Source: a virus (Duplodnaviria; Heunggongvirae; Uroviricota; Caudoviricetes). From it: DNA of 64,000 nt. Positions 6,677 through 60,733 of this stretch are shown here, piece after piece; position 1 is the first letter of the stretch; every line of letters starts with the position of its first letter. The notes below the pieces were generated by a model that worked only from the letters and a program-made list of their open reading frames with translations, was not told the DNA's origin and searched no databases. The DNA is taken from IMG/VR virus record IMGVR_UViG_3300042975_000097; one strand, given 5' to 3'. The translations under genes and the position numbers were made by a program.

Positions 6677-6830
6677 TTGACACTCCCGGGGTTGAAACCC
6701 CGGGATTCCTGCGAACTGGGTTTGCTTGGCTTCCGGTCTTTGTGAGGCCGGCATGCCAGCGGCTCCCCATCTTGAGCAGGCTATCCCCGATTGTCGGTCG
6801 GTTCCAGCTCCCCTTTTACTGTCAGGGGGT
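6677..6830 (-). ncRNA. predicted omega RNA (reRNA) of TnpB, overlapping the tnpB 3' end and the right end
   Basis: Placed from established TnpB biology (ωRNA derives from the 3' end of tnpB plus the right end). Contains the right-end hairpin. Exact 5' end not determinable here. Confidence 0.35.
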
Positions 6831-8006
6831 TTCCGCATGCAGGCGGAGCGCTTCGCCGAGGATGTTGCGTGCAGCGTTCACGTCACGGTCGTGGAGGGTA
6901 CCGCATCGTGGGCATGTCCACTCCCGGTCTTCCAGTTTCAGGCCGGTGTTCTTCCACCCGCATTCATGGCAGAGTTTGCTGGACGGGTAGAAACGGTCGA
7001 CCTGCTGGAAAACGCGACCGTACCATTCGGCCTTGTAGGCGAGCTTGTCCACGAATCCACTCCACGCGGCGCGACGGATATTGCGGTTCATGACTCGTTT
7101 GCGTGACTGCCCGCTCCTCTCATACCTGCCGTCCGCGTTCAGGCGTTTGCGTGCCTTGCGTGTCATGTTCGCCACCATGAGGGTTTCCATGCCGATGAAT
7201 TGGTTCTCTTCGATCAGCCGATGGGTCACCTGATGCTGGTAGTTGTCACGCCAGTCGCGGAGCTTCCTGTGGGCGGCTTGAAGCCGGGCTTTCTGCTTGT
7301 AATAGTTGTTGGATTGCCTGCCTGTTCCTCTCTTCCTGCGGGAGAGCTTGCGCTGCTCGCGGATAATGGCCCGTTCGAGTTGCCTCATACGCTGCGGGTA
7401 GTCGATCTTCTCGCCTGTGGATAGGATGAGGAAGTCTTTAACGCCGAGGTCGATGCCGACCTGTCCGCGTACTTGGGGTTTGGGTTGGATGTCCACGTCG
7501 AACAGGAACACGATATAGTATCTGCCGCCCTCGCGTTTGACCGTCCAACTGGATAGTTGGTCGAGCGGGTAGCGGGGTTTGCGGCGTTTGCGGATGCGGA
7601 TGGAGCCGAGTTTCTTGGACAGCGGGTACCGGCTGCCGTCCATGTGCCGGATGGGCATCGTGTTGCGGAACGATTGCACGTTGCCATGCCGGGTGGCGAA
7701 TCGTGGCCGGTTCTTCCCGTACTGTTTCTTGCGGAAGTATGCGGTTTGGGCTTTCCGGTAGTCCATGATCGCGTTGCTCAGCGAATTCGACGGGATGGGG
7801 CTGTCTTTCAACCATCCGTAACGGGTTTTCATGTCCGTCACGTTTGGGCATGTGGGACGTGGGTTCGTGTCCTTGTCGTAGGCGTTGAACGCCTCGACCT
7901 GCTGGTTGTAGACGAATCTCTTGTCCCCGAAGCATTGCTCCAATAGTGCGGCCTGTGTCTTGGACGGGGCGAACGGTATGCGTTGCGCGAACTTGCGTCT
8001 GGTCAT
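6822..8006 (-). CDS. tnpB: TnpB (OrfB) RNA-guided endonuclease, IS605 family
   Basis: 394 aa. RuvC-like motifs (GIDLGVKDF). C-terminal zinc finger CHECGWKN...CPRCGTLHDRDVNAARNI. Confidence 0.9.
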   Translation of the reverse strand: MTRRKFAQRIPFAPSKTQAALLEQCFGDKRFVYNQQVEAFNAYDKDTNPRPTCPNVTDMKTRYGWLKDSPIPSNSLSNAIMDYRKAQTAYFRKKQYGKNRPRFATRHGNVQSFRNTMPIRHMDGSRYPLSKKLGSIRIRKRRKPRYPLDQLSSWTVKREGGRYYIVFLFDVDIQPKPQVRGQVGIDLGVKDFLILSTGEKIDYPQRMRQLERAIIREQRKLSRRKRGTGRQSNNYYKQKARLQAAHRKLRDWRDNYQHQVTHRLIEENQFIGMETLMVANMTRKARKRLNADGRYERSGQSRKRVMNRNIRRAAWSGFVDKLAYKAEWYGRVFQQVDRFYPSSKLCHECGWKNTGLKLEDREWTCPRCGTLHDRDVNAARNILGEALRLHAETP

Positions 8007-8446
8007 TCCGCGTCACGCCCCTTGGCCCGCTGGTCGTCGATGCATTTGGCAACGGCCTGCTCGTTCACGCTGCCGATGCTTTCCGCGAAGTAGCTGGGCG
8101 GCCATAGGCTTCGCTCCCCGCGCCGTTTCCAGTATTCGCTTTTAAGTTCGGGACGCATGGCGCACAGACGGAGACTACTGGTGCCTTTCAACTGTTTGAC
8201 GATGCTGCTGACGCTGATCTTGAGTGGTGCGGATACGAACAGGTGGATGTGGTCGTCCAATCCGATTTCGACATGGGGGATGCGGTAACCGTGCTCCTTG
8301 GCTATCGCATGGAGGATGGTTTTCAGATCGTCGCCCACACTGTCGGCGAGGACCTTGCGACGGTATTTTGTACACCAGATGATGTGGTAGTTCAGGTTAT
8401 ACACTGAAGTTCTACCATGCGTGTACCGTTCGCCACTTGATTTCAT
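8003..8446 (-). CDS. tnpA: TnpA Y1 HUH transposase, IS200 family
   Basis: 147 aa. HUH motif DHIHLFVS. Overlaps the tnpB start by 4 nt. Confidence 0.85.
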   Translation of the reverse strand: MKSSGERYTHGRTSVYNLNYHIIWCTKYRRKVLADSVGDDLKTILHAIAKEHGYRIPHVEIGLDDHIHLFVSAPLKISVSSIVKQLKGTSSLRLCAMRPELKSEYWKRRGERSLWPPSYFAESIGSVNEQAVAKCIDDQRAKGRDAE

Positions 8447-8630
8447 AGGATTATTATACCATATGTAGTGGATGAGGGCGTTCTAACCCGGCATTAAAAT
8501 ACCGGGTTAGCGAACGCAAATTCCCATCAACCACGCGGAGGAGACCGGTAGGAACATCCATCGGGCGGCCGGGTGGCTGAGCAAGCATTCGGGGTCGATC
8601 AGCCATGGTCTCGACACGGCCCGCGAATCG

Positions 8631-15792: not shown

Positions 15793-16757
15793 TCATGATC
15801 TTGCCCGTTTCCTTGTTGTTCCAAGGTTCTGACTATCCTCGCTGGCATGACCGGTGCGGGCGCGCAGCCGGGCCATGACCGCGCGGGATTGCTCCGCATT
15901 CAACGTGGACACGGCCGACGGTATCGCTGACGGTTCGATGATATTCTGAAGCGCGTCGATGACCGTGCTTGCCGACGGGTCCTTGAGTTGCGTTGCGGTG
16001 ATGAGATGGGAGGCTGATGTCGGGATCGAACCGAAATCCCGTACCTGTTGTAACACCAGGTCGATGGCGTCATCACGCGACACGAACGTCGGCGTACCGG
16101 CGTTCTCGTGGATATAGGCCACCTCCCCATTCCTTTTTATGCGGGACCAGCCATCGGGTGCGGCGTCGACCCTCGCATGACATCTCCTGAGCAAGCGGCG
16201 CATTGCCGATGATAAGCGAACTCGAACCGGAGTTCCTCCCGCATTGGTAATGGCGGCTCCCATGCTGTCTATGACGCGCCGCCCCGGAATGTCGTCGTGG
16301 GCGGCGGCGCCACCGGCAATAACCACTATACCAGTGAGGAAACCGAGGAGCGGATACTCAGAGCCGGTTACACCCAATATGGTTGTACCGAGCACGATGG
16401 CGACTCCGCTAACGAGCATCGCGTGCGACAAATAGTTATGTCCGGATAAATCATAGAACGGCCCGATCGCCTTCGGTTCGTCCTCGATGAGTTCATCGCT
16501 GACTGCACCGCTATGGTAGAAGTACCGAACCGACTTGCCTTCCATTTTCTCGGTTCTCACCCAGTAGCACGGATCATCGATATGCCCGAGTTCACGGGCC
16601 TTTCTGTTCACGGCATCATCATCGGGGAGCAACCCGCCGCTGATGATATACCCGCGCTCACCGTCGGCGTTCTCGTACTCGTGGTACGTCCACCTGCCGT
16701 GGTCATCGTTCTCCTCATTACTGGTCATATGCTTCTCCTCACTACTGCTGCTGGTCA
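15793..16757 (-). CDS. hypothetical membrane protein, paralog 1 (conserved N-terminal WTYHEYENADG..GYIISGGLLPDDDAVNRKARELG)
   Basis: Start taken at MTSSSSEEKH (ATG ~16757). Shares N- and C-terminal motifs with the adjacent gene. Confidence 0.5.
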
Positions 16758-16765
16758 TAACGTGC

Positions 16766-17722
16766 TCACTCTGGTACTCGTGTGCGCAGTCGAGCCATGA
16801 CCGAGCGTGACTGCTCCGGGGTGAGCGTCTCCACTGCGGGCGGCACCGACGAGAACCCCACGATACCGCGCAGAGCATCCTCGACGGCCGCCGCGGATGG
16901 TTCTACGATCTTGATTTCATGAACGCTTCGCGGGCTATCATAGGCGTAGTTAACGGTTCGAGAGCGATCATAGGCGTAGTCGTTCGTCTTACCGGCAATG
17001 ATGTCGGCGGCCTCGTCCTCTCCGATTGCGGTGGGCGTACCTGAATGCTCGTGAACATATACAACGGTATCACCGCGGACGATGCGGCGCCAGCCCTTGG
17101 GCGATTCGCCGACAGGGATGTGAAGACGTCGCAGGGTACGCCGAACGGCGATCGACAGGAGCGTGCGGAACGGCACGGCCATGTTGTTCATGATGGATGA
17201 GCCAGCATCGTCAATGACACGGTGTGGCTTACCATCACCATCCGACTCATATAGCAACCCCGCTAACCCGATGAACGTGAGGCTCAGAACAAAAGTGATG
17301 ACGGAAACGGCGCAGACAACGGGATTGGGGATGAATATTGGCAAATAAATCGATGCGCTACCGAGGACTCCACTGAGATAGGTTGGCTTCATCCACTGGT
17401 CGATTCCATGTAGTTTGAGATCATAGAACGCGCCAACCGACTGCCGTTCCCTACCCATCAGGAACCTGCTAATCCCACCGGTGTAGTATAGGTACCTGGT
17501 AGCCACCCAGCCCATCTCCCTGTCGCGCAACGGGACCCTCTTCCACTTAGTGTCAGGATTCGGGAATCCGAGTTCACGCGCCTTGCGGTTCACGGCATCA
17601 TCATCGGGAAGCAGGCCACCGCTGATGATATACCCATGCTGACCGTCGGCGTTCTCGTACTCATGGTACGTCCACTTGCCGTAATCGTCGTTGCCGGTTT
17701 TCTTCTTGCTCATACGATTCAT
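16766..17722 (-). CDS. hypothetical membrane protein, paralog 2
   Basis: Start MNRMSKKKTGNDDYGKWTYHEYENADGQHGYIISGG. Tandem paralog of 15793-16757. Confidence 0.5.
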   Translation of the reverse strand: MNRMSKKKTGNDDYGKWTYHEYENADGQHGYIISGGLLPDDDAVNRKARELGFPNPDTKWKRVPLRDREMGWVATRYLYYTGGISRFLMGRERQSVGAFYDLKLHGIDQWMKPTYLSGVLGSASIYLPIFIPNPVVCAVSVITFVLSLTFIGLAGLLYESDGDGKPHRVIDDAGSSIMNNMAVPFRTLLSIAVRRTLRRLHIPVGESPKGWRRIVRGDTVVYVHEHSGTPTAIGEDEAADIIAGKTNDYAYDRSRTVNYAYDSPRSVHEIKIVEPSAAAVEDALRGIVGFSSVPPAVETLTPEQSRSVMARLRTRVPE

Positions 17723-18027
17723 GATAACACGTCCACGAGCATTCATCCCCGTCAACGACGAATGCCGATTCCATCACGCGCAATCATCGTCTCCGTATAC
17801 TGTTCACGTCATCGTCATCGGCGAGCAGACAGCCGCTAACGATATACCCATGCTGCCCGTTCGTGACTTACTCGTGGTACATCCACTTTTGTCGTGATTA
17901 TCATCGCTAGTTCTCTTCTCCCATACCGCCCATGAATAGCACGGTAATCTGGGCGGTTACCGTCGGCGGTATGCGCTCAGATCAACTCCACGGGCAGGTC
18001 ACCGACCAGCACCGTATCAATGACCGG

Positions 18028-18180
18028 CTTAAACCCCCACGAGTGTGGGGAATGTACACGGGCTCTCTCCTCGCCCGTGAATCCAACCAGAATCAACCCC
18101 ACTAGTGTGGGGAATGTGGTATCTCGTCATCGATGCGCGCCGAGTAGCCCTGGGATCAACCCCACGAGTGTGGGGAATGT
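18028..18180 (-). CRISPR. orphan CRISPR-like mini-array (3 repeats, 2 spacers), no cas genes nearby
   Basis: Repeats cttAAaCCCCCACGAGTGTGGGGAATGT (18028-18055), aATCAACCCCACtAGTGTGGGGAATGT (18090-18117), gATCAACCCCACGAGTGTGGGGAATGT (18153-18180). Period 62-63 bp, spacers 36-37 bp. Internal palindrome CCCCAC-gagt-GTGGGG. The first repeat is degenerate and an AT-rich leader-like region (18181-18290) lies on the right, suggesting minus-strand transcription. Confidence 0.4.
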
Positions 18181-18456
18181 AGTAGCAAAACCGATATGTA
18201 ACAGTTATCATGCCCGGTTATTCTCTACTAGAGAAAACAACTGACTTACAGGATATAATATCATTATACCACATGTTCAGATTATGGGTCACCTATGTCT
18301 ACGGAAGTAGGCGTTATTCTGGTGAACTGTCCTTCCATAGACGGTCATTGGCGTTCCGACCCTATTATGGTGTATGATTTCGCGCAGACCGTCATCGATG
18401 GCGCGCGACCGACATCGTGAGTGCAATATTCCATCAGGCGAGAACAGTTCGCGGAC

Positions 18457-18467
18457 GGGGGGGGGGG
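18457..18467 (+). repeat. homopolymeric G11 tract 8 nt upstream of ATG 18475
   Basis: GCGGAC-GGGGGGGGGGG-ACATCAT-ATG. Candidate slipped-strand phase-variation site in the RBS/5' region. Confidence 0.9.
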
Positions 18468-18474
18468 ACATCAT

Positions 18475-19044
18475 ATGAGCAGCATAATCACACATGAACC
18501 GGGCGGCACGGCCGCAGCCGGGGTCACGTCGACGATCGCGCGCCCGTCTGCGCCGAGCGGTTGGCGGCACGGCGCCGCGTGGACGTACGGCGTCATGCTC
18601 GCGGCGTCCGCCGTCGCGTTGTTCGTGTCGTTCATCCTCTCCGCGGAGACCCTACAACTGGCGCGACACCCGAGGCAATCGCTCAGCCGCGACATCAACG
18701 CAGTGCTCTCATGCTCGGCGGCCGCCGGCTCATGGCGGTCGGAGATCGTGAAACTGGGGACGCTGAGCGTGCCGAAGGCGTTCATAGGCATCGCCGCCGA
18801 GTCGGTCCTCGTCACGCTCGCCGTTCTCGGCATGATCCGCGTCAGCGTGCCGAGGTGGTTCACCGTGTGTACGTGGCTAGGCGGGCTGGCGGCGCTCGCG
18901 TACGGCCTACTGGCTGTTCAGCCAGTCCATGTTCGTCATTCAGGCGTTGTGTCCGTGGTGCCTTGTGCTTATGTTCTCCACGACCGTCCAGTTCATGGCG
19001 TTGTCGCACGCGACCGTCACCGTCCGCCGCGTTCCCGGCCATGA
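18475..19044 (+). CDS. hypothetical membrane protein
   Basis: MSSIITHEPGG... with several TM helices. A GTG at 18421 is in frame through the G tract, so the start is ambiguous. Confidence 0.45.
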   Translation: MSSIITHEPGGTAAAGVTSTIARPSAPSGWRHGAAWTYGVMLAASAVALFVSFILSAETLQLARHPRQSLSRDINAVLSCSAAAGSWRSEIVKLGTLSVPKAFIGIAAESVLVTLAVLGMIRVSVPRWFTVCTWLGGLAALAYGLLAVQPVHVRHSGVVSVVPCAYVLHDRPVHGVVARDRHRPPRSRP

Positions 19045-19263
19045 CCATCACCCCGTGGCGTCAAGACGGCTGGACGCGTATTATCGTCTTCGTTATGACC
19101 TCATGGTCGATGTGGTCGTAGTGCTCGCGCTCGCGGCCATCATACTGGTGCGCGATGGCGCCGCCATATTCCGATGAATCACGGGCACGCACGCACTGGC
19201 CAGCGCCGTTCGCGGTCGTGGCCGGTCGGTGGGGACGATAACGCCGCCGGCTACCGATCACGA

Positions 19264-19412
19264 TGACGCTCTACGTCGATTACGCTCACACGACAAGTAA
19301 ACGCTTGCCGTATGAGCGTATTTTTTGTGTGACGTCGTGAAAACGGCGTTTTCGATGTGACCATCGCAAAACAGTATTCTGTCGTTCTACGTGGCTTACA
19401 GCGCGCGTGGCT
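19264..19412 (-). repeat. copy C of the ~140-bp structured repeat (inverted), abutting the Dcm promoter
   Basis: Reverse complement matches copy A (...GCTGTAAGCCACGTAGAACGAC...AATACGCTCATACGG...CGTGTGAGCGTAATCGACGTAGAGCG). Confidence 0.7.
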
Positions 19413-19443
19413 CACTGCCCGCGCAAGTTGATATAATGCCCGT

Positions 19444-22353
19444 ATGACCATGAAATACATCAGCGTGTTCAGCGGGATCGAAGCGGCCACGGCCGCATGG
19501 TCGCCGCTGGGATGGAAACCGCTCGCGTTCAGCGAGATCGAACCGTTCCCGAAGGCGGTGCTCGCCGCCCATCACCCGGACGTCCCCGACCTTGGGGACA
19601 TCACGAAGGTCGACTGGTCCCCGTACGCGGGCAAGGCCGACGTGCTCGTCGGCGGCAGCCCATGCTTCCCGGCGGGCACGCTGGTGCTCGCCGCGGACCG
19701 GTTGACGCCCATCGAGGACATCCGGGTCGGCGACATGGTGCTCACGCATCGCAACCGTTGGCGTCGTGTGACGGCGGTCGGCTCCAAGACGTCGGCGACG
19801 ATCACGGTCGCCAGCGATGGCGTTACCGTGGAGTGCACACCTAACCACCCGTTCTACGCCGAGTCCGATGAAGGCGCCGACTCTCCCCGCGAGTGGGTGC
19901 GCGCGGACGCGATGGCCGGCCGTCGCTGGCTCACCGTGAACGCGCTGGCGGACCCGCTGCCCACGCCGGCCATGGTGAGCGCCGATGGCGAGGCTGGTCG
20001 AACGTTCGAGGTCGTGGGCCGGGCGCTAGCGAGCGGCGGCGACGCGGACGTGTATCATCGCGGCTGGGCCTGGCTGTTCATCCGCGCCGACGGGCCGACG
20101 GTGCCCGCGTGGGTGTTCGCCGCTCGCGTGGAGTGGCGCGCAGCGCTGAGCCGCGGGTATCATGCGGTCGCCAGCGGTTCGCCGACCCCTGCGGTCGTGG
20201 CGGCCATGCGCATCATCGACGCCGGTCTTCACGGGAACGACGCGGATGGTGATTGGGGAAGCGTGCGATCGTTGTCACGTTCGCGCGATCATGTCAAAGT
20301 ATATAACCTGGAGGTAGAGGATGACCATAGTTACACAGCGGACGCTATCGCAGTTCACAACTGCCAGTCGTTCAGCATCGCCGGAACAAGGGCAGGGCTC
20401 AACGGGGCCAGCGGGCTCATGTGGGAGTATGTCCGGGCGGTTCGAGAACTCCGTCCTCGTTGGTTCCTCTGGGAAAATGTCCCGGGGGCGCTCTCCAGCG
20501 CGCATGGGGAGGATTTCAGATGTCTCCTCACGAGCATGGATGAGCTCGGGTATGGTCTCTCATGGCGAGTACTGGACGCGCAGTTCTTCGGAGTGGCCCA
20601 GCGACGCCGTCGCGTGTTCCTTGTCGGACATCTTGGAGACGAACGCTCCGGCGAAGTATTATTTGAGCCCGAGAGCCTGCGATGGGATACTCCGTCGAGC
20701 AGAGAAAAGAGGGAAGGCCTTACCCGAGGAACTCAGAACGGCGTTGGAGAAGCAAGCGAACCCCGACTGAACCACCATACATGGGAGATCGCCGGGAACA
20801 TCATCGGCAGGCAGGAGAAGAACGGCGGCCATCAATTAGGCATCGTCGACCCCGATAAGACCGGCGCGTTCACGCTCACGACCGCCGACAGGCACGCGAT
20901 CGCTGATTGCCTGACTCCATGGGACAATCAGGGACGCCGACTGTACCGCCCGGATGGCGTATACCCGGCATTGGATGCGAGGACCGGCAACGCGGGCGGC
21001 GACGCGCGGGCGGTGATGACGAACTACGGAAGCGACATCGCCGGCACGCTCACGCGCCGTTACGATTCATCGCCGTGCGCGGACCGCGGGCAGAACATCG
21101 TGCTCGCAGCCGGTTTCAGCGCCGGCCAATCGCAATTTGCCGGCTCGATAGGGTACGAGCACGAGATGACGCCGACGCTCAGGGCGAGCGGATCGGGAAC
21201 GAATCAAGTGCCGACGGTACTGGTGAAGACCGATGACCCGAAGCGCGATCAGCCGACGATCGCGTTCGCCGCTAACCAGCGTGATGAGGTGCGCGACCTT
21301 CATGACCTTGCGGGAACACTCGCCGCCCAGCCGGGAATCAAGGGGCAGACGTACGTTATTCCCGAGAACGCCGCCGACCCGGTGCGCGATCGAGAGGTCG
21401 AGATGCGTAACCTTCATGACCCGGCCGCCGCGATCGCCGCCGAATCAGAGGAATCCACCATCATGTGCCGCGCGGGCGGTCAGGTGAACAGCGAGACCGA
21501 CCGTGACCTGTCGCCAACGCTCACCACGCATGACGCCAAGGACCCGCATATCATATACCCCGAGCGTACCGGCGCATGCTCCGTGCTCCGTATGCGCGCG
21601 GGGTGCGCGGGCGTCGGCAAGGATGCCCTGATTCAGAACGACGCCAGCGGCACGCTCGCGTTGAACAACGATCAGACGCTGTTCCCTCCGCACGGCGGCA
21701 TCCGTCGACTCACGCCGATGGAGTGCGAGCGGCTCCAAGGATTCCCTACGAGAGTGAAGCTTGACGTTTCGGCAATGACCGAGGCCGACATCGCCGCGAA
21801 TCTGCTCGCCGGCGGCGTCATCGCCATCGACCTTGACGATGACGCCGTCCACGCGCATACGGCCGATGGCGATCAGGTGGTCACGACCCCGTTCGTGGAC
21901 GCTATCATGGACGGCGCGCATCACCGCATCCGCACGGACAGGCTCGCTTACCAGTTCGCTTTCGGCGCCATCCCCGATGGCATGGTCATCGTCCATGACG
22001 ATCATGACGAGTCGAACAATCACCCCGACAACTTGTCGCTGGCGCCCGTGGACGATGCGCCCGCGACCGATGACGGGTCGGCCGTCGATGCGCCGACGGT
22101 GACGATGCCGGTCTCGTTCACGCATGATTACATGTCATCATGGTCGACGTACCGTGATCTGGCCGCGTGGTACGGCATCGATGGCGAGCGTATCGACTCC
22201 ATCGTCAGCGAGCGCGGCTGGACGGACATCCCGTGGCATGGCAAGGATCACGCGGCCGACGCGCCGAGGTACCGCGCGCTGGGCAACTCCATGTGCGTTC
22301 AGGTGATGCGCTGGCTTGGCGAGCGCATCGCCCGCGCCGATGCCATGGACTGA
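19444..22353 (+). CDS. Dcm-type DNA cytosine-C5 methyltransferase precursor with an intein in motif IV and an HNH-like insertion between motifs IX and X
   Basis: Extein motifs: I VFSGIEAA; IV GGSP|intein|CQSFS; VI WENVPG; VIII QRRRVFLVG; IX RRLTPMECERLQGFP; X YRALGNSMCV. HNH-like VHDDHDESNNHPDNL at roughly 21960-22040. Leaderless-type promoter TTGATATAATGCCCGT-ATG. Confidence 0.8.
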   Translation: MTMKYISVFSGIEAATAAWSPLGWKPLAFSEIEPFPKAVLAAHHPDVPDLGDITKVDWSPYAGKADVLVGGSPCFPAGTLVLAADRLTPIEDIRVGDMVLTHRNRWRRVTAVGSKTSATITVASDGVTVECTPNHPFYAESDEGADSPREWVRADAMAGRRWLTVNALADPLPTPAMVSADGEAGRTFEVVGRALASGGDADVYHRGWAWLFIRADGPTVPAWVFAARVEWRAALSRGYHAVASGSPTPAVVAAMRIIDAGLHGNDADGDWGSVRSLSRSRDHVKVYNLEVEDDHSYTADAIAVHNCQSFSIAGTRAGLNGASGLMWEYVRAVRELRPRWFLWENVPGALSSAHGEDFRCLLTSMDELGYGLSWRVLDAQFFGVAQRRRRVFLVGHLGDERSGEVLFEPESLRWDTPSSREKREGLTRGTQNGVGEASEPRLNHHTWEIAGNIIGRQEKNGGHQLGIVDPDKTGAFTLTTADRHAIADCLTPWDNQGRRLYRPDGVYPALDARTGNAGGDARAVMTNYGSDIAGTLTRRYDSSPCADRGQNIVLAAGFSAGQSQFAGSIGYEHEMTPTLRASGSGTNQVPTVLVKTDDPKRDQPTIAFAANQRDEVRDLHDLAGTLAAQPGIKGQTYVIPENAADPVRDREVEMRNLHDPAAAIAAESEESTIMCRAGGQVNSETDRDLSPTLTTHDAKDPHIIYPERTGACSVLRMRAGCAGVGKDALIQNDASGTLALNNDQTLFPPHGGIRRLTPMECERLQGFPTRVKLDVSAMTEADIAANLLAGGVIAIDLDDDAVHAHTADGDQVVTTPFVDAIMDGAHHRIRTDRLAYQFAFGAIPDGMVIVHDDHDESNNHPDNLSLAPVDDAPATDDGSAVDAPTVTMPVSFTHDYMSSWSTYRDLAAWYGIDGERIDSIVSERGWTDIPWHGKDHAADAPRYRALGNSMCVQVMRWLGERIARADAMD
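19663..20361 (+). other. intein (233 aa, Hint domain, no obvious LAGLIDADG motif)
   Basis: Starts CFPAGTLVLAADRL (block A) directly after GGSP. Ends VYNLEVEDDHSYTADAIAVHN followed by C of CQSFS (blocks F/G, HN + Cys). Confidence 0.7.
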
Positions 22354-27430: not shown

Positions 27431-28414
27431 TTGACTTTTTACAAACCAGAGTATGGGTGGGTTCGCTGGAAGTGGCCGAGCCGATGGTCCGCGGCGCGGA
27501 TGTTCTCCGGATGGATCGCTGCGGCCGGCGTTACCGGCATCGTCATCCGCAGCGAGAACGATCCGTTCGCCGCACCGTTCGATGGCGTAGATCGTATGTG
27601 GCCGGCTACTTATGATCAGAAAAGTGCTTCGGATAGGAGAGCGAAGAGCATCAACGCCGAACTGTCGAACACCATGATCCGCGTGACCGCAAACAAGTAT
27701 GTCACTTCGATGGTGATAACCGGCCAGTATGTGTTCTCCGACCCCATATGTTATCATAGAGAGCAGCCACGCATCCGCATAGGCGATGACGAGTACCGGT
27801 ATGCTGCGGTTGCGCTGTCGAGGCACATGGTCATCGATCAATGCGATGACATGCCCGGAAACGATGTGCTTACGACCCGTGACCGTGAAACGTTGATGCG
27901 TGGCCTGATCGGCATGATCAGTATGTCTCCGCGGAAACGAAAGCAGTTCGCGAGCATCATCACGCATGTGTCGTTGACGACCGACCCGGCGTCGTTCCTC
28001 ACGGGCAGCGAGGACGGGACGGTAACGCCTTCGAACAATCGCGATCGCCGGCGGGCGGCGACATTCATCGACCATATGAGGAAGACCCGGGATGGACTCC
28101 GGCCGATCATGCCGGGCGCCATCATGGAACTGGCCGACCGGTATGTCGGCATGGCCGATGAGTCGGCCGAACTGATTCCGACCGCCATCGACCGGTCGGC
28201 GATCGACACCATCGAGGACGCGATGCTATCACTCGATGCGCTCGCGTTCACGGCAAGGAGTACGAGACTCGCCGGCGAGGGCCGCCGGCTTGATGCCGCG
28301 CTCGCCGCAGCAATGCGCGACATCGAACTCATGGACGGCGAGCACGCGCGGCGCGGGCGCGAGGTCATCGACTCGGCGCTGGCGACAGAAAGGGAACGTG
28401 AGCATGTTCGGTAG
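27431..28414 (+). CDS. tandem paralog family, copy 1 (divergent N-terminus, TTG start after RBS GGGAGG)
   Basis: Shares ...GITSITIRSPFDPYER.../...GVTGIVIRSENDPF..., AELSN(I/T)M(F/I)R, and C-terminal RDIELM..EH..RGR.VIDSALAT.REREHVR with copies 2-4. Confidence 0.55.
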   Translation: MTFYKPEYGWVRWKWPSRWSAARMFSGWIAAAGVTGIVIRSENDPFAAPFDGVDRMWPATYDQKSASDRRAKSINAELSNTMIRVTANKYVTSMVITGQYVFSDPICYHREQPRIRIGDDEYRYAAVALSRHMVIDQCDDMPGNDVLTTRDRETLMRGLIGMISMSPRKRKQFASIITHVSLTTDPASFLTGSEDGTVTPSNNRDRRRAATFIDHMRKTRDGLRPIMPGAIMELADRYVGMADESAELIPTAIDRSAIDTIEDAMLSLDALAFTARSTRLAGEGRRLDAALAAAMRDIELMDGEHARRGREVIDSALATEREREHVR

Positions 28415-29441
28415 GAAGAAGAAAGTCGTTAAGAGCGAGCCTGACGTCGTGCGTCACAATAAGGCTTACCCGGTGATGACAGTGAACATCGATGAGATGA
28501 ATGCCGATGACGAGTCGTTCCGCAACTGGATTCACTCGGCTGGAATCACAAGCATCACCATTCGCAGCCCGTTCGACCCGTATGAGCGTAAGGACATGGG
28601 GCTGCCGGGGCAAGGCGATAACATCAGTCATGAAAGTTACGATATGATGTCGGCTGAGATTAACGCGGAGTTGTCGAACATCATGTTCCGGATCATTGGC
28701 TCCCGGTACCGCACCTCGATCCTAGTCAATAACGGCTACTGGGTCAGGGCTAACTACGTAAGTCCAAGTTTTCGTATCGATCATGACGAGTACATACTCC
28801 GGAGCATGGTACACGCAAAACCCGATAACAACAATGGCTTCGACTACTGGCTATCCCAGTGCGATGACGCGCCCGGCAATGATGCGCTCGACGTATTCGA
28901 GAGAACGGAACTCGGCAAGGCGATGACATGGTTCATGGAGGCCAGCCCTGAGGAGCGGAAAACATACGCGGACATCATCACATGGGTGGGACCGGACGTC
29001 AAACCGGTGGCGTTCCTCACCGGTAGTGGTAAGAACGTCGCGCCGGCAAGGCTGATCGAGCGCGCTGAGGATTACATGAGACATATCCATGCGAGCCGCG
29101 CCGGCATCCCCGAAGCAACGCCGGATGACATTGCGGACATCGCCGACGGTTACGTGGCGAACGCGGAGTCAGCGATGACGATGATGCGTGAACCGAAACC
29201 AGCCGGCAACGCGGACTGGAACGCCATCGTCGACGTCATCGACAAGGCCATGTCCGACATGGATGCGCTCGTGTTCGCCACGAGCACCATGACGATGGAG
29301 AACGAGAACAGACGTCTCAGGCTGGCGCTTGTCGACACGATCCGCGACATAGAACTCATGAGCAGCGAGCATGAGCAGCGTGGCCGCGCGGTCATCGACT
29401 CGGCGCTGGCGACAGGAGGGGAGCGCGAGCATGTTCGGTAG
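28404..29441 (+). CDS. tandem paralog family, copy 2 (intact; MFGRKKKVVKSEPDVVRH...)
   Basis: ATG lies inside ATGTTCGGTAG, which also holds the TAG stop of copy 1. 345 aa. Confidence 0.6.
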   Translation: MFGRKKKVVKSEPDVVRHNKAYPVMTVNIDEMNADDESFRNWIHSAGITSITIRSPFDPYERKDMGLPGQGDNISHESYDMMSAEINAELSNIMFRIIGSRYRTSILVNNGYWVRANYVSPSFRIDHDEYILRSMVHAKPDNNNGFDYWLSQCDDAPGNDALDVFERTELGKAMTWFMEASPEERKTYADIITWVGPDVKPVAFLTGSGKNVAPARLIERAEDYMRHIHASRAGIPEATPDDIADIADGYVANAESAMTMMREPKPAGNADWNAIVDVIDKAMSDMDALVFATSTMTMENENRRLRLALVDTIRDIELMSSEHEQRGRAVIDSALATGGEREHVR

Positions 29442-30465
29442 GAAGAAGAAAGCCGCGAAGAGCGAGTCGGACGTCGTGCGTCACGATACCGATTACCCGG
29501 TGATGGCAGTGACATCGATGAGATGAATGCCGATGACGAGTTGTTCCGCAACTGGATTCGCTCGGCGGGGATCACGAGCATCACCGTTCGCAGCCCGTTC
29601 GACCCGTATGAGCGCAGGGGACATGGGGCTGCTGGCGCGGACAGAGCGATAGACATCAGCCATGAAAGTTACAACATGATGTCGGCTAAGATTAACACGG
29701 AGTTGTCGAACATCATGTTCCGGATCATCGGCTCCCGGTACCGCACCTCGATACTGATCGATAACGGCTACTGGGGCAGCAGTATCTCCCGACCCCAGCT
29801 TTCGCATCAATCATGACGAATACGTATACCATAGCATGGCAAAAGTACGCCATGGTGACGGCGATTACCTGTACTGGCTATGCCAGTGCGATGACGCGCC
29901 CGGCAATGATGCGCTCGACGTATTCGAGAGAACGGAACTCGGCAAGGCGATAACCTGGTTCATGGAGGCCAGCCCGGAGAAGCGGAAGACATACGCGGAC
30001 ATCATCACATGGGTGGGCCCGGACGTCGACCCGGTGGCGTTCCTCACCGGTGATGGTATGAACGCCGCGCCGGCAAGGCTGATCAACCGGGCGGACGTGC
30101 TTATCGAGCACATGGAGCACGCACGCGATTCGATGTCATCGACCATGCCCGATGACATCATGGGCATGGTCGATGCGTGTATGAACACGGCGCATACGGC
30201 GGCGTCAGCGCTTCGTACGCGATCATTGGCGGACGTCGACTGGAACGATCAGATGGACATCATCGACACGTCCGCGACCAACCTTGATGCGCTCGTGTTC
30301 GCCGCAAGCACCATGACAATGGCAAATGAGAGCAGACATCTTAGGATGGCGCTTGTCGACACGATCCGCGACATAGAACTCATGAACAGCGAGCATGAGC
30401 AGCGTGGCCGCGCGGTCATCGACTCGGCGCTGACGACAGGAAGGGAACGTGAGCATGTTCGGTAG
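29431..30465 (+). pseudogene. tandem paralog family, copy 3, inactivated by a -1 and a +1 indel
   Basis: N-terminus in frame 1 stops after ...VMAVTSMR*. Conserved middle (ORF 29523-29816) is in frame 0. C-terminus (29836-30465) is back in frame 1. Indels are at GTGAACATC->GTGACATC and TATTCCCG->TATCTCCCG relative to copies 2 and 4. Confidence 0.6.
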
Positions 30466-31456
30466 GAAGAAGAAAGTCGTGAAGAGCGAGCCTGACGTCG
30501 TGCGTCACGGTAAGGCTTACCCAGTGATAACAGTGGACATCGACAATACAGATGCCTACTCCGAGTTGTTCAAGAACTGGATTAACTCGTCGGGGATCAC
30601 GAGCATCACCGTCCGCAGCCCGTTCGACCCGTATGAACGCGGGGATATGGGGCTGCTGGCGCGACAGGGCGATGACATCAGCCATGAAAGTTACAACATG
30701 GCGTCGGCTAAGATTAACACGGAGTTGTCGAACATCATGTTCCGGATCATTGGCGCCCGATACCGCACCTCGATACTGGTCGATAACGGCTACTGGGGCA
30801 ACAGTATTCCCGACCCCAGCTTTCGCATCAATCATGACGAATACGTATACCATAATATGGCAAAAGTATGCCATGGTGACGGCGATTACCTGTACTGGCT
30901 ATGCCAGTGCGATGACGCGCCCGGCAATGATGCGCTCGACGTATTCGAGAGAACGGAACTCGGCAAGGCGATAACCTGGTTCATGGAGGCCAGCCCGGAG
31001 AAGCGGAAGACATACGCGGGCATCATCACATGGGTGGGCCCGGACGTCGACCCGGTGGCGTTCCTCACCGGTGATGGTACGAACGCCGCGCCGGCAAGGC
31101 TGATCGAGCGCGCGGATATACTCGTCGAGCACATGGAGAAAATCCGGGGAACGCTGACGACCGTCCCCGACGACATCATGGCAACGGTTGACAAGTACTT
31201 CGGAACCGCGAGATCGGCCCTGACCATCATCCACTCGCCGGCGACAACACCCTCCGCCAGCCGCTCATGGAACGATCTGCTTGACATCATCGAACATTCG
31301 ATGATGGCCGTCGACGCGCTGGCGATGACCGTGATGACATCGAATCTCGCACAGTCGAACAAGGCAACTGGACATGGCGTTCGCCAGCGCGATTCACGAT
31401 ATCGAACTCATGGACGGCGAGCACGCAGCCAAACCGAACCGCAGGCATGTTCCCTA
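30455..31456 (+). CDS. tandem paralog family, copy 4 (C-terminal frameshift/truncation)
   Basis: Conserved to ...NLAQSNKA. The family C-terminus (LDMAFASAIHDIELMDGEHA...) continues in the +1 frame and ends at TAG 31454-31456. Confidence 0.5.
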
Positions 31457-34985: not shown

Positions 34986-35600
34986 TCACTCCTTATCGAT
35001 GCGCACGCCCACGGTATGCGTGTCGGCGACGGTCGCCGACACTACCTCGATCGAGGCGAGCACGCGACGCGCGATGTCCTCCAACGCCACGCCGGGGCGT
35101 TCCGGGGCGAACGATGAATGGTACATCGGCTGGCGCTGGTCATCGGTGAGGGCGAGCCAGTCGCGCAGCGTCCTCGGCAGGTCGACGAAACCCTCGACGT
35201 ACTTGCGCGCGTCGCAATCCGGGAACGTCCTGACCATCCCGTTCGACATACCGATGTAATCGTCGCCGCCATCCACGTCCACCGCGTGCCGGAGCAGCCA
35301 GTCAGCGGTCATCGAACCGAGGACAAGCCCCGGCTCGTCGATGTCGGCCACCAAGGGGCCGTCGACGCCGGCCGCATGGAGGTCGCCGGCGATGCCGACG
35401 AGGTCGTCGATGGTCAGCGCGTTCGCGTACTCCTCGTCCGGTGCCGACGGGGCCGACGCGATGGCGTCGAACGAATCGGCGACGGCGCCGCCGTTGAAGG
35501 ATTGCTCCGACCAGCGGCCGCCGCTCGCGATCGCGTCCTCCAGCGTGACCGGACGCCGGCGTGGCGGTGTCACCGTGACGTCGCCCGCGGCATCGCTCAC
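34986..35600 (-). CDS. hypothetical protein
   Basis: 204-aa ORF with protein-like composition. Confidence 0.45.
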   Translation of the reverse strand: MSDAAGDVTVTPPRRRPVTLEDAIASGGRWSEQSFNGGAVADSFDAIASAPSAPDEEYANALTIDDLVGIAGDLHAAGVDGPLVADIDEPGLVLGSMTADWLLRHAVDVDGGDDYIGMSNGMVRTFPDCDARKYVEGFVDLPRTLRDWLALTDDQRQPMYHSSFAPERPGVALEDIARRVLASIEVVSATVADTHTVGVRIDKE

Positions 35601-35890
35601 CGGGCCACCTCGGCCATCGCTTCCACGTCATCATGGAACGTGAACCTGCGCGCCGTGGCGTCATAGGGGCCGTACGGCGTGCGCTCGTCGGCCCAATCGC
35701 CGGCGATGCCGTCGAGCAGGTTCTCTACGCCCCCGGGGACGAAAATGGAGTTCCTGCCCGGGTCAAGCCCGTAGGCCGACAGGTTCACGCTGGCGATGTC
35801 ACGCCCATCGTCCCCTTCCGCCAGCACCGCGAGCGTGTCATCCACCTGATACCGGGCGATGACGATTTCATCGCCATGAGCGTTCTTCAT
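35597..35890 (-). CDS. hypothetical protein (MKNAHGDEIVIARYQ...)
   Basis: RBS AGGAGG + AGTCAA + ATG. Overlaps the upstream stop (ATGA). Its first 26 nt are duplicated next to the IS right end. Confidence 0.45.
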   Translation of the reverse strand: MKNAHGDEIVIARYQVDDTLAVLAEGDDGRDIASVNLSAYGLDPGRNSIFVPGGVENLLDGIAGDWADERTPYGPYDATARRFTFHDDVEAMAEVAR

Positions 35891-35959
35891 TTGACTCCTC
35901 CTCAGCCATGTTTCTTTATCTCCTTCGGTTCACATTTCATCGCCATGAGCGTTCTTCAT

Positions 35960-36120
35960 TTGACTTCTCCCCACGGCTAAAACCGGGGGATTCCAAGCCC
36001 TAGTGAGACATGCGCCTCCGGCACAGCGTCCGGGTGGCGTCTTACGGTCTCATGGGATTCAGGGACAAGTCCTGCCCTGGTGAGCATGTTCACAGCCGCG
36101 TTCTTATCACGGTCCTTCAC
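35960..36120 (-). ncRNA. predicted omega RNA of TnpB (scaffold over the tnpB 3' end and right end)
   Basis: Placed by established TnpB biology. The conserved right-end sequence shared with copy 3 supports a structured 3' element. Confidence 0.35.
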
Positions 36121-49652: not shown

Positions 49653-50132
49653 TCATGAAACCGTGATCTGCGTTTCCTTGAGGCCGCGATCCTCGATGAT
49701 GTTGGCGGTGATGAAGGAACCGCCGTCATCGCCATCATGGAGATCGATCTTCGCGAAAGAATCATCGTCCTCATCAAACAACGGTACGATGGTCCTAAGT
49801 AGGCGTTCCGGAGCAATCACCATATACACGGGGACCAACTCGACTTCACGGTTGTCGTCGATGATGACGATTGGTTCATCGCCGCGGATGGCGAAGGTCA
49901 CGTCGTCAACGGTATAGTTGACATCGGGATCATTCAGGACGTTCCTCAGCATGGTCTTGCCGGCATCATTGATCTCGGCGACGCTATCAAGGATATCGAA
50001 TGAAGTATCAGTGAACATGAGAGCGTATGGCTCGCTATTCTCTGGAACTGGAATCCTTACCGTGCGGGTATTCGCTTTCGCCTCGGAATCATATGATGTT
50101 TTCGGGTCTACAAGCATGTCATTCGTATTCAT
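49653..50132 (-). CDS. hypothetical acidic protein (low-GC island)
   Basis: 159-aa ORF. GC falls markedly across 49500-50800. Confidence 0.4.
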   Translation of the reverse strand: MNTNDMLVDPKTSYDSEAKANTRTVRIPVPENSEPYALMFTDTSFDILDSVAEINDAGKTMLRNVLNDPDVNYTVDDVTFAIRGDEPIVIIDDNREVELVPVYMVIAPERLLRTIVPLFDEDDDSFAKIDLHDGDDGGSFITANIIEDRGLKETQITVS

Positions 50133-50403
50133 GCTTGCATCATACCACGAATCGGTTCACGTATCATGATAGCGACAGTCATTAATACTAGTTATCAGAT
50201 TTTTACCCGTTGACTCGATAACTCTTTATTGACGTTTGACAGCCAAGAGATGATGCCGTTATTATGATCAAGATAATGATCCGATAAGAGTTGATTGAAC
50301 TCTACGGATCGTTCATCCGAGGGAACAGTGATACAGGCTACATTCTGATATGATAGGAGCCCATGGCGATTTTTCTCCATGGACTCCTGTTTTGTCTTGG
50401 TTA

Positions 50404-50667
50404 CTACTGTTCATTCTTGTAATCGTTAATAGCGTCCGTGCATGATGCCTTGCGCTGGCTGGTAGAATGAGCTTTGTTCTCATCACACCATTCACACAGA
50501 TTCTCGCAACGATGATCTCCGCGGAGGCTCTCCATCGAGTGGATCTTATCCCAGCTAGTACGGGTCTTCTCTAGAAAATCAGTGTAATCGCCAGCGTTCT
50601 CATACCCGAGCTTGCGAGCTTTGCGGTCAGTTCCGTTGTAAGTACGATCCTTGAAAGTTCTGGACAT
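50404..50667 (-). CDS. small Cys-rich protein (MSRTFKDRTY...CENLCEWCDENKAH...C)
   Basis: 87 aa in low-GC DNA. N-terminus matches the 41681 product. Confidence 0.35.
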   Translation of the reverse strand: MSRTFKDRTYNGTDRKARKLGYENAGDYTDFLEKTRTSWDKIHSMESLRGDHRCENLCEWCDENKAHSTSQRKASCTDAINDYKNEQ

Positions 50668-50806
50668 ATCGTCTCCTTATAGTACTCCCGGTTGTCTTGG
50701 GGTCCATTTGATTAGCCTCGTGAACTGGAAACAGGTGACTTCCAATCTTGAAGAGTTATCTCCACACGGGTTTATTCCATAAACTCATTATATCATACTG
50801 TTTTAA

Positions 50807-58274: not shown

Positions 58275-58320
58275 GCCGCCGTTTTTGATTAATCACTATT
58301 TTCGTGGTAAGATGTAAAGT

Positions 58321-59781
58321 ATGAGCCAGAAGGTACGAATCATCAGAGTCAGGCACACGGGCGCGACCGTGTACCTTGGCGACGATTCATACCACAACCA
58401 TTGCTGGACGCGCAACCCCGAACGCATCATGGACTGGCTGTGTGATGGTTGGCGCACCCGTTTCAACCAGCATCGGGAGCATCGGGTCATCCGCCGCTAC
58501 ATGGAGGGTATGGAATCCCATGAGCGCATGTGGGTGGACGTCCCCTTGGGTGGGGCGGCCGTCGGGGAGCCATGCAAGGACAGTGAGGCACGAACCCGGT
58601 GTTCTTGGCTCGCATGCATTCCCGCAGCCGTTCTCGCCAGTCCCACGCGCGTGGAGAACTCGGAATGGTACGCCGCATTGAAACGCAAGAAGAATAATGG
58701 CGGCCGTGTCCCGGGGTTCAAATCCCGCAAACACAACCCCCAGTATTTCGTATGTTGGCGCAACCAAACCAAGACGGGCAACGCCATCTACCATCAGGTG
58801 TCACGCAAGCGTGGCGTGGTCGTCATCACCGGAACCGTGAAAAAAGCATTCCGCAAGCCGGGCGAAACGGGATGCCGTTGGAGGCTCACCATTCACGTGC
58901 GCGTCAGCCAACCCGTCAGGGATTATACGAGTGTCGGGGTGAATTGGACGGAACGCACTCTGACGTTCACCAACATTCCGTCACCCATCCGGCGGGATGC
59001 CACCGGTCGGCAGACCGGCATCGACCGTGGTTGCGCCCACACATTGGCCTTGTCGAATGGGACCATGCTGGACATGCCGCAACCGTCCAAACGGGAGAAG
59101 CAAGCGTATCTGCGTCTGCAACGCAAGCTCGCCCGACAAGATGCGGTTAACAGCCGGCGTGGTGGGAAAACCGCGAAATTCCAATCGAAACGACGCAAAC
59201 TCACATTGAAGCGCATGGGTTCGATACGCAGCCGCACCAACAACCGCAAGGACGATTGGGTCGCGAAGACCACGGGCCGACTGGTCGAAGAATACGATCT
59301 CATCGCCTTGGAAGCGTTGAACACCCGGCAAATGACCCGCAAGCCGAAACCGAAACAGGACCCCAATCGCAAGGGGCGCTACCTGCGCAATGGTGCGGCG
59401 GCCAAAGCGGGATTGAACCGTAGTATCCTCAACAACCGTTGGGCGGATATCCAGAGCAAACTCGAATACAAGACCCGTCTCGCCGGAACCCGACTCATAC
59501 TGATCGACCCGGCGTACACGTCCCAGACCTGCAACCGTTGCGGTCATGTCGCAAAGGAGAACCGCGAGAGCCAAGCGGTCTTCCAATGCATCAACTGCGG
59601 CAACAAGGACAATGCGGACATCAACGCGGCCAAGAACATCCTCGACCGCGCGACACACACAACCGGCATGGACGATGCCGAGGGCGTGGAGGGACACGCC
59701 ACCCGTGAAACCTATGTTTCATGGGAAGGTCCCGTTGAAACGCCAACCCCTGCCACACGTATCGGAAGGCTCCTCCACTGA
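58321..59781 (+). CDS. tnpB: TnpB RNA-guided endonuclease
   Basis: 486 aa. GIDRGCAHT. EALN. CNRCGH...CINCGNKDNADINAAKNI. Upstream -10 TGGTAAGAT. Confidence 0.9.
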   Translation: MSQKVRIIRVRHTGATVYLGDDSYHNHCWTRNPERIMDWLCDGWRTRFNQHREHRVIRRYMEGMESHERMWVDVPLGGAAVGEPCKDSEARTRCSWLACIPAAVLASPTRVENSEWYAALKRKKNNGGRVPGFKSRKHNPQYFVCWRNQTKTGNAIYHQVSRKRGVVVITGTVKKAFRKPGETGCRWRLTIHVRVSQPVRDYTSVGVNWTERTLTFTNIPSPIRRDATGRQTGIDRGCAHTLALSNGTMLDMPQPSKREKQAYLRLQRKLARQDAVNSRRGGKTAKFQSKRRKLTLKRMGSIRSRTNNRKDDWVAKTTGRLVEEYDLIALEALNTRQMTRKPKPKQDPNRKGRYLRNGAAAKAGLNRSILNNRWADIQSKLEYKTRLAGTRLILIDPAYTSQTCNRCGHVAKENRESQAVFQCINCGNKDNADINAAKNILDRATHTTGMDDAEGVEGHATRETYVSWEGPVETPTPATRIGRLLH

Positions 59782-59968: not shown

Positions 59969-60650
59969 TCAACATGTGTTGACGGCAGGCGTGCGATTCC
60001 CGCTCACCGGAACGGGACGAAGCCGTAGAGCACCAGCGTGAGCACGATGATCCACAGGCACGCGCGGCGCAGCATGTAGGCCACGGGGGGAACGCATGGC
60101 CCTCATGAGCATCATCTTCGTGTCATCGCCGATATCGTCGTCGCCGAGAATGGCCGCCAGCGCCCCGTCCTTCGACCATGATATGTACACGATCGGCAGG
60201 AACGTCATGTCGGGAATCAGCAGTGCGGCCGCGGTGACCACGTTCACTATCGCCGGAAGCGTGTACATGTACGAGGCGTTGAGCACGGCGCCGGCGGCGT
60301 TCGTCAGCGATCTGTAGCAGAGGGCGCAGAACGCGGCGATCAGTCCCAGATTGAGGCCGACGGTGATCATTTGATTGGCCCCTCGAACGACGCGGGCGCG
60401 AACGCTCATGTCGACGGTGGACTGGACGTCCGCGCTGATGATGCTCGATCGGGTCTCCATGATCATATGATGGCGAAACGTTCTGACGTTCCCGTTGGCC
60501 GTTTCGTCGGCGACCGCTGACGGCGCCGGTTCGGACTCGTCAGTGGTACCGGCCGCGGGTTCGCCATCATCGATCGGCGTTACCCCTGCGGTCGCTCTCG
60601 TCTCGTCATCATCATCGTTCGTCTCGTCATCGTTCATGTCATCAATGATA
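59969..60650 (-). CDS. hypothetical membrane protein, divergent from the pilin-like gene
   Basis: Start taken at MNDDETNDDDD. TM helices ITVGLNLGLIAAFCAL and VVTAAALLIPDMTFLPIVYI. C-terminus uncertain. Confidence 0.3.
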
Positions 60651-60733
60651 TCACGGCGGGCTGGAAGCCGCGCCGACCCGCAATCGGCCCGATATTCGTT
60701 CGTCGGCATTGTTACCGGCATGGACAGGGGAGC

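Follow-up and report, generated by a model that had tools for sequence, protein, structure and literature searches.

What are three short direct repeats doing between two divergent genes of a genome in whose sequenced 64 kb no CRISPR-associated (cas) gene is found, and, if they form a CRISPR array, whose machinery would read it and whose DNA is it aimed at? The question is raised by a locus at 18028-18180, read on the minus strand, in a stretch of 64,000 nucleotides (hereafter the window) of the IMG/VR virus record IMGVR_UViG_3300042975_000097, which is filed under Caudoviricetes. A reading of the bare letters (the original prediction) had proposed an isolated mini-array here, with a decoy or a set of regulator-binding sites as alternatives. 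The parts of the locus follow the order leader, repeat, spacer, repeat, spacer, degenerate repeat, and we conclude that it is a real CRISPR mini-array without cas genes of its own. As to its use, we favour, at a probability of roughly 0.57, a cas-less array of the type I-E class that is used in trans with type I-E machinery encoded elsewhere, against sibling genomes.

The leader-proximal, middle and terminal repeats (R3, R2 and R1) share a core of 28 nt, or 29 counting a variable first base, and start 63 and 62 nt apart. The three copies, the CCCCAC/GTGGGG palindrome and the period of 62-63 nt had thus been described correctly at the outset; of the proposed repeat length of 26-28 nt the upper value stands and the 26 nt do not, and the spacers, given as 36-37 bp on the strength of the 26-nt repeat, in fact measure 35 nt (S1) and 34 nt (S2). 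A 23-nt core of the repeat occurs three times at no more than one mismatch, against 0 occurrences expected from 100 shuffles, and at that threshold there are no further copies elsewhere in the window. Each repeat folds into a 6-bp CCCCAC/GUGGGG stem closed by a tetraloop, at about -11 kcal/mol (-11.1 for R3), and 3' of the stem stands a TTGATCC tail, in what sequence and fold predict to be the position of the 5' handle of the CRISPR RNA (crRNA). The degeneracy of the distal repeat, likewise noticed before, is confined to its 3' end (GGGGGTTTAAG): R1 has an intact stem and has lost the handle, and it retains the G after GGGG, the consensus base of I-E arrays of this class, which R3 and R2 have lost. 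The general features of a CRISPR array, that is, at least three near-identical repeats of 23-47 nt, regular spacing and unique spacers of similar length, are all present.

Upstream of the first repeat, on the non-degenerate side where the original prediction had placed an AT-rich tract with a TATAAT-like element, lies the most AT-rich 110 nt of the whole 64 kb (18176-18285, GC 0.327 as against 0.615 overall). GC is 0.355 over 18181-18290 and 0.40 over 18181-18380, and only 0.07% of 110-nt windows have a GC as low as the former. The leaders of I-E arrays of the same class are also AT-rich relative to their own loci and carry a T-run followed by A(G/C) just before the repeat, as is seen here; at the level of similarity, leader, trailer and spacers have no counterpart among 120 metagenomic I-E loci. 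One promoter-like site, the sole one in 17700-18500, lies in the leader, and with a shuffle expectation of 1.0 it is suggestive only. Leader with putative promoter at one end and degenerate repeat at the other are what an array would be expected to have, and the array is read on the minus strand, to which AT-rich leader, promoter-like site and degenerate distal repeat alike point.

Table 1. Coordinates of the array and of the segments that flank it in the window.
Feature	Position	Strand	Sequence or remark
Leader, AT-rich tract upstream of first repeat	18181-18380	-	no counterpart in relatives
Promoter-like site	18263-18292	-	-35 GTGACC, 18-nt spacer, TG-extended -10 TATAAT; 10/12 consensus match; points into array
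Repeat R3, leader-proximal	18153-18180	-	28-nt core ACATTCCCCACACTCGTGGGGTTGATCC
Spacer S1, 35 nt	18118-18152	-	CAGGGCTACTCGGCGCGCATCGATGACGAGATACC
Repeat R2	18090-18117	-	ACATTCCCCACACTAGTGGGGTTGATTC; 2 mismatches against R3
Spacer S2, 34 nt	18056-18089	-	TGGTTGGATTCACGGGCGAGGAGAGAGCCCGTGT
Repeat R1, terminal, degenerate	18028-18055	-	ACATTCCCCACACTCGTGGGGGTTTAAG
Trailer	17926-18027	-	unique; matches only the window itself and the identical contig L001
Decayed N-terminal remnant, third copy of neighbouring paralogous family	17802-17925	-	distal edge of rearranged segment

Where the two inter-repeat segments come from can be read from a small group of relatives. The gene that adjoins the array (16766-17755, minus strand) belongs to a family of only 8 members among 5.8 billion proteins, and the contigs of its homologues, fetched from metagenomes, run collinear with the window for 20 kb or more, with DNA identities of 85-97%. 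S1 is identical (35/35) to part of a 77-aa gene in the contigs L005, L006, L007 and L221, which come from four JGI samples, and matches at 31/35 positions in L003 and L004; the score of this match was reached by 0 of 300 shuffles. Because the match is inverted relative to synteny and ends exactly at the repeat borders, S1 can be taken as an acquired spacer, and leftover collinear homology was rejected as its explanation. S2 matches an 80-aa PF21825 gene of L003 and L004 in 29 of 32 aligned columns, with one 1-nt gap (alignment score 25, against a maximum of 18 in 300 shuffles). The 80-aa gene adjoins the 77-aa gene in the relatives, and the two protospacers lie about 0.9 kb apart on the same, coding strand, which fits primed I-E adaptation, though only two spacers are concerned. 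On these alignments both inter-repeat segments are shown to be acquired spacers, S1 identical and S2 near-identical to gene parts in sibling genomes, and the protospacers whose absence would have told against an array have turned up for both.

Neither target lies on the carrier itself within the 64 kb: both genes are missing there, and a self-target is absent from the window, in which the longest other exact spacer match is 12 nt (15 nt with one mismatch). A 5' A-rich protospacer flank is of the kind used by I-E systems; in all loci read GGGAA stands before the S1 protospacer, and TGA stands before the imperfect target of S2, in a sample of only two spacers. In IMG/VR, a search with S1 gave 0 matches and a search with a 17-mer of S2 gave 3, none extending past 17 nt. 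Homologue searches with both target proteins returned only themselves, so that the exact source allele of S2 was not found. The AlphaFold model of the 77-aa protein (predicted local distance difference test score 55) is too poor for use, and the PF21825 relatives in IMG/VR are unrelated jumbo-phage contigs of 30% GC. PF21825 is the family of 'Sequestin', phage sponges that sequester 3'cADPR and thereby block type I Thoeris (bioRxiv 10.1101/2025.07.12.664507).

The protospacer matches effectively refute a reading of the locus as periodic protein-binding sites (iterons or operators) or as a chance repeat, neither of them CRISPR, and we give it next to no credence. It could appeal to the small number of copies, only three, and to their intergenic place between divergent genes, but the chance expectation is 0, sequence and architecture match those of cas-linked I-E repeats, the inter-repeat segments are fragments of foreign genes bounded exactly by repeats, and no replication or regulator gene lies nearby.

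The class of the repeat was assessed from metagenomes, where a degenerate pattern, TTCCCCACNNNNGTGGGGNTGAT, which keeps the stem and the TGAT of the handle, matched more than 120 loci. Many of these are long arrays, in which up to 57 repeats recur every 61 nt. One array among them, L148, with the repeat GTCTTCCCCACACACGTGGGGGTGATCC (23/28 identical to the present one), stands directly downstream of Cse1, Cse2, Cas7e (CT1975), Cas5, Cas6e (PF08798) and Cas1, on the same strand as the reading used here; the repeat of another locus, L131, is 24/28 identical. Since the cas-linked L148 repeat is related to it in sequence and lies on the same strand, our repeat belongs by sequence to the type I-E class, with the minus-strand reading as its I-E orientation. 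A central GC-rich hairpin and a 3' tail of about 7-8 nt are present as in I-E repeats, and cleavage there is predicted. Rfam gave no CRISPR-DR or other family, whether for the whole window at the gathering score or for 17900-18400 at E<=10. Several of the metagenome loci (L131, L135, L122/L178, L128/L144/L191/L206) have 1-4 I-E-class repeats each, with the same type of stem and handle and, in some, at uneven intervals (114/51 or 61/304 nt); they may represent additional mini-arrays or solitary repeats.

The likeness to canonical I-E arrays such as L148 extends from the 28-29-nt repeat beginning xxxTTCCCC, the 6-bp CCCCAC/GTGGGG stem with tetraloop and the TGATCC-type 3' handle to the AT-rich leader, the degenerate terminal repeat and, perhaps, the GAA before the S1 protospacer; the I-E repeats of E. 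coli and Thermus thermophilus are further canonical examples for comparison. Unlike those arrays, the present one has two spacers and a 62-63-nt instead of a 61-nt period, and no Cse1, Cse2, Cas7, Cas5, Cas6e, Cas1, Cas2 or Cas3 was found within 64 kb. The last point had been anticipated by the original prediction, which had also drawn attention to distant TnpB genes as Cas12 ancestors. Two such genes, both matched as 'Cas12f' by PADLOC, do lie at a distance (6822-8012 on the minus and 58318-59781 on the plus strand, about 10 and 40 kb from the array), but their hinted relevance does not survive: they were rejected as servants of the array, being far away, one of them part of an ordinary IS200/IS605 unit, and the repeat not being of type V. 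A type V (Cas12f/TnpB-associated) array is set aside on the same grounds of distance and I-E repeat class.

How the array relates to its targets becomes clear from the geometry of the locus. Homology to L003 breaks at 18381 and 17795, and the 585 bp in between (17796-18380: leader, array, trailer and paralog remnant) replace 1334 bp of L003 (8586-9919), a segment that holds precisely both targeted genes. In L005 the 77-aa gene is present and VKOR, the gene on the leader side of the array in the window, is absent; in L002, the closest relative, a deletion from about 17805 to about 18870 has removed the array, the leader and the 5' half of VKOR. The cassette swap against L003, the VKOR-less L005 and the deletion in L002 mark the site as a hot spot of rearrangement, where the cargo differs from one genome to another. 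In one JGI sample, 3300045594, L002 occurs together with L006, which has a perfect S1 target, so variants of the L002 type and of the target-bearing L006 type coexist. Several features of the mini-arrays borne by mobile elements are found together here: one or two spacers, no cas genes, and targets in close relatives (flanks 85-97% identical) and not in the carrier.

The array sequence is identical in two independent SRA (Logan) assemblies, SRR16526436 and SRR35181508. In the former, the array contig L001 starts at window position 18182 and the contig with VKOR and leader, L218, ends at 18155; in the latter, contig L219 ends at the same base as L218. Such breaks on both sides of the leader-proximal repeat may reflect population variation there (gain or loss of spacers) or a copy of the repeat elsewhere in the sample.

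Some further observations concern the neighbours of the array. Stop codons interrupt the remnant at its distal edge, whose DNA shares 74-76% identity with the 5' ends of two genes, 16766-17755 and 15793-16878. These belong to a tandem family of proteins of about 320 aa (15793-17925, minus strand) with a conserved N-terminus, GKWTYHEYENADG..., and two central transmembrane-like segments; the window has two copies and the decayed remnant, and L005 has three copies (L005 5821-8735). Rearrangement breakpoints recur near 17796-17805 in three different relatives. On the other side, the VKOR gene (18421-19177, plus strand), intact at 234 aa in L003, is split into two frames of 207 and 82 aa, and a truncated product of 189 aa is called alike in the two SRA assemblies. 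A G-run just upstream of the VKOR ATG (about 18457-18467) counts 10, 11 and 12 G in L218, the window and L219, and could be a slippage or phase-variable tract.

Since the locus is decaying, the array could be a relic: a piece of a host I-E array, captured by recombination between spacer and protospacer with deletion of the targeted genes, and now inert cargo. Recombinational capture of array pieces by phages has been discussed (PMC7099407). It would be consistent with such a history that both spacers derive from exactly the segment that the cassette replaced, that decay and rearrangement recur at the breakpoint near 17796-17805 (the L002 deletion, the paralog remnant, the frameshifted VKOR), and that no compatible repeat is known elsewhere. 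Against present inertness stand the good preservation of R3 and R2 with intact hairpins, a leader with extreme AT bias and a near-consensus extended -10, the 35/35 identity of S1 to targets still circulating in four samples, and the sameness of the array in the two SRA assemblies. We therefore regard an inert relic as improbable, noting that origin by capture and present function do not exclude each other.

If the array is in use, the mechanism could be as follows. The leader promoter would transcribe the array on the minus strand, and at the 3' base of each hairpin the transcript would be cut by a nuclease of Cas6e type, whose gene would lie elsewhere in this genome or, given a mobile carrier, in the host cell. 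The resulting crRNAs would load Cascade/Cas3 machinery, which would destroy incoming sibling genomes carrying the two-gene module, and the array would serve as a weapon with which closely related elements or strains compete. The same mechanism has been proposed for virus-borne mini-arrays (PMC6858448) and modelled (PMC7099407). As the array is allelic to the genes it targets, two origins may be considered, namely primed adaptation in situ, or recombination between spacer and protospacer through which part of a host array was captured.

Several observations weigh against this use in trans. The most direct is that no cas gene was found in the 64 kb by Pfam (about 58 open reading frames, ORFs), PADLOC (59) or NCBIfam (43), the PADLOC negative applying to the 25 listed among 94 matched families. 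Nor did the search for the repeat elsewhere, which the original prediction had proposed as a way to a cas locus, lead to one: 185,579 species genomes, IMG/VR and the JGI metagenomes gave no identical or near-identical repeat, so that the cognate Cas machinery was not identified, and the nearest cas-linked repeat, that of L148, differs at 5/28 positions. The period of 62-63 nt departs from the 61 nt of most related I-E-class arrays, some of which include 62-63-nt units. The promoter scan, a consensus match alone, did no better than chance expectation, and the exact protospacer of S2 was not found, the best match carrying a 1-nt gap. The locus shows signs of decay in the frameshifted VKOR, the paralog reduced to a remnant and the deletion in a relative. 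Finally, IMG/VR does not contain those contigs of relatives in which the S1 target lies, and the window has no virus or plasmid hallmark genes, with 0 matches in PHROGs (20 ORFs) and 0 in NCBIfam (43 ORFans).

This last point leads to the nature of the carrier. About 43 of its 59 ORFs have no match in Pfam or NCBIfam, these 43 being 100-515 aa long, and those that are annotated are mostly of mobile-element or defence type: a type III restriction-modification system, an intein-interrupted Dcm methylase with HNH, a non-specific nuclease, a phage-type RNA ligase and the two TnpB proteins. Next to these stand the cell-type genes VKOR, cation-efflux protein, SPFH/Band 7 and YqeY. The best matches of the Band 7 protein among 185,579 GTDB species genomes, in Pseudoclavibacter and Actinomycetaceae, reach only 47-49%, and the RNA ligase is the only protein with phage homologues, at about 35%. 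The 64 kb contain neither tRNAs nor Rfam families; searches of ORFans against phages and plasmids by tblastn found no match (for plasmids, two window proteins against 72,556), a search of IMG/VR with a 486-aa ORFan found nothing, and window 17000-20000 matched a phage collection only in VKOR and the methylase. The contig coordinates of the relatives, if collinearity is assumed, imply a genome of at least about 94 kb. Rather than a core chromosome, we tentatively suppose a mobile element or island, large and uncharacterised, whose host would be related to Actinomycetota.

If the carrier were a cellular chromosome after all, the array could be an ordinary secondary one, with the I-E cas operon and the main arrays outside the window, and its spacers would record past meetings with a small mobile islet (PF21825 and the 77-aa gene) that inserts at the hot spot in sister strains. 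E. coli, for instance, keeps a second array far from its cas genes. The cell-type genes, the size implied by the relatives' contigs, the lack of a virus or plasmid hallmark among the window's genes and the absence of the target contigs from IMG/VR all fit such a chromosome. However, the window's preponderance of ORFs without family matches (0 of 20 in PHROGs) and the mobile-element or defence type of most others do not, and the distant Band 7 matches indicate that this is not the core chromosome of a known lineage. Moreover, the JGI metagenomes in which relatives occur yielded no other array with this repeat, and targets allelic to the array in otherwise collinear genomes are the pattern of element against element (PMC6858448). 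A secondary chromosomal array is in our view possible but doubtful.

Other features of the carrier are recorded here for completeness. The IS200/IS605 unit (TnpA and TnpB, 6822-8482, minus strand) has about 74% nucleotide identity to copies on Bifidobacterium longum megaplasmids of 169-198 kb; the second, longer TnpB (58318-59781, plus strand, 487 aa) has no adjacent TnpA, and in L005 an IS607-type resolvase and TnpB are inserted where the window has none. The C-5 cytosine DNA methylase (969 aa, 19444-22353, plus strand) has a Hint/intein interruption and a C-terminal HNH endonuclease domain and is conserved in L003 and L005. At 28232-31181 (plus strand) there are three tandem paralogous units of about 1,026 bp, mutually 82-85% identical, which encode ORFan proteins, in a stretch where AT skew is positive and GC reduced. 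A 40-nt direct repeat occurs twice at 35865-35973 (plus strand; 95% identity, 69 nt apart), and a small ORF on the minus strand (35597-35929) has its 5' end there or close by. At 49900-50800 GC falls to about 0.48 over roughly 1 kb, as against 0.615; in AT content one stretch there (50183-50292) ranks second in the window, and the segment may have been inserted from a foreign source or have a regulatory role. A 671-aa DUF285 (BspA-like repeat) protein at 60521-62536 (plus strand) has a DNA periodicity of 75 nt over about 760 bp.

A mobile carrier would also suit a different role, that of an RNA decoy or RNA-based anti-CRISPR, in which the repeats soak up Cas6e or Cascade subunits and shield the carrier from a host I-E system, the spacers being incidental. 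Phage-borne solitary repeat units with a decoy role are reportedly known from work by Camara-Wilpert et al. in 2023, and cas-less repeats of a host-like class, possibly on a mobile element, are just what is seen here. But the spacers have their full length and match sibling genomes specifically, a decoy would not need leader, array and degenerate terminal repeat in ordered succession, and the carrier may not be mobile. Full-length spacers with specific targets also take the locus out of the class of RNA anti-CRISPRs and solitary repeat units. We consider a decoy very unlikely, and of the alternatives offered by the original prediction neither this one nor regulator binding is favoured, the inter-repeat segments being full-length foreign pieces whose matches stop at the repeat borders; the isolated mini-array that it named first is supported by the I-E-class repeat and the protospacers of both spacers.

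Among known systems, orphan arrays on plasmids are said to target other plasmids, as Pinilla-Redondo et al. reportedly found in 2022. The present array resembles them in lacking cas, in its possibly extrachromosomal carrier and in its aim at competing elements; it differs in that no plasmid hallmark genes were found and the two window proteins had no tblastn match among the plasmids searched. Closer parallels are offered by the portogloboviruses SPV1 and SPV2 of Sulfolobales, whose virus-borne mini-CRISPR arrays were described by Medvedeva et al. 2019 (PMC6858448). They share with our locus the one or two spacers, the promoter-bearing leader (here promoter-like by sequence), the absence of cas, spacers that match close relatives at or near the position of the array, and a carrier that lacks the targeted sequence. 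SPV1 and SPV2, however, are viruses of about 20 kb with archaeal repeats of type I-A/I-D style, for which identical host repeats and leaders are known and amplification from virions has been shown, whereas the present array is of a bacterial type I-E class and its carrier, a genome of 64 kb or more, is unclassified and rich in ORFans. Mini-arrays and spacer-repeat units of phages and prophages (Faure et al. 2019), as far as PMC6858448 and PMC7099407 relay them, are likewise bacterial and cas-less, with one or two spacers against adjacent genes of close relatives and not of the carrier. In the same second-hand accounts the phage mini-arrays are reported to be without host-like leaders and to have the same repeats as the host; here, in contrast, there is a distinct AT-rich leader, and no identical host repeat was found in the collections searched.

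One may go further, tentatively, and draw a fuller picture, which taken as a whole we think rather unlikely. The carrier may represent an undescribed, almost all-ORFan, high-GC lineage with genomes of about 94 kb or more (it could be a plasmid, an island or a giant phage, with an Actinomycetota-like host), whose siblings would be fighting at an anti-defence hot spot, one allele consisting of the PF21825 sponge and the 77-aa gene and the other of a leader-equipped I-E mini-array aimed at just this pair of genes. The array would have arisen from spacer-protospacer recombination with a host array or from primed adaptation in situ and would still be turning over, and such turnover would account for the breaks that two independent SRA assemblies show within the leader-proximal repeat.

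For a few archaeal viruses there is good documentation of cas-less mini-arrays that borrow the CRISPR system of the host against the carrier's own relatives; in some phages such arrays are inferred. The present case adds a bacterial example of the type I-E class, in which the leader is kept, both spacers are traceable and the targets are allelic to the array; one target belongs to a recently characterised family of anti-Thoeris sponges. It also draws attention to an obscure genome lineage with very few database relatives. That the targets of mini-arrays lie close to the arrays has been noted and left unexplained (PMC6858448, PMC7099407), and an array that has replaced its own target genes bears on the question, raised in PMC6858448, of why targets and mini-arrays adjoin.

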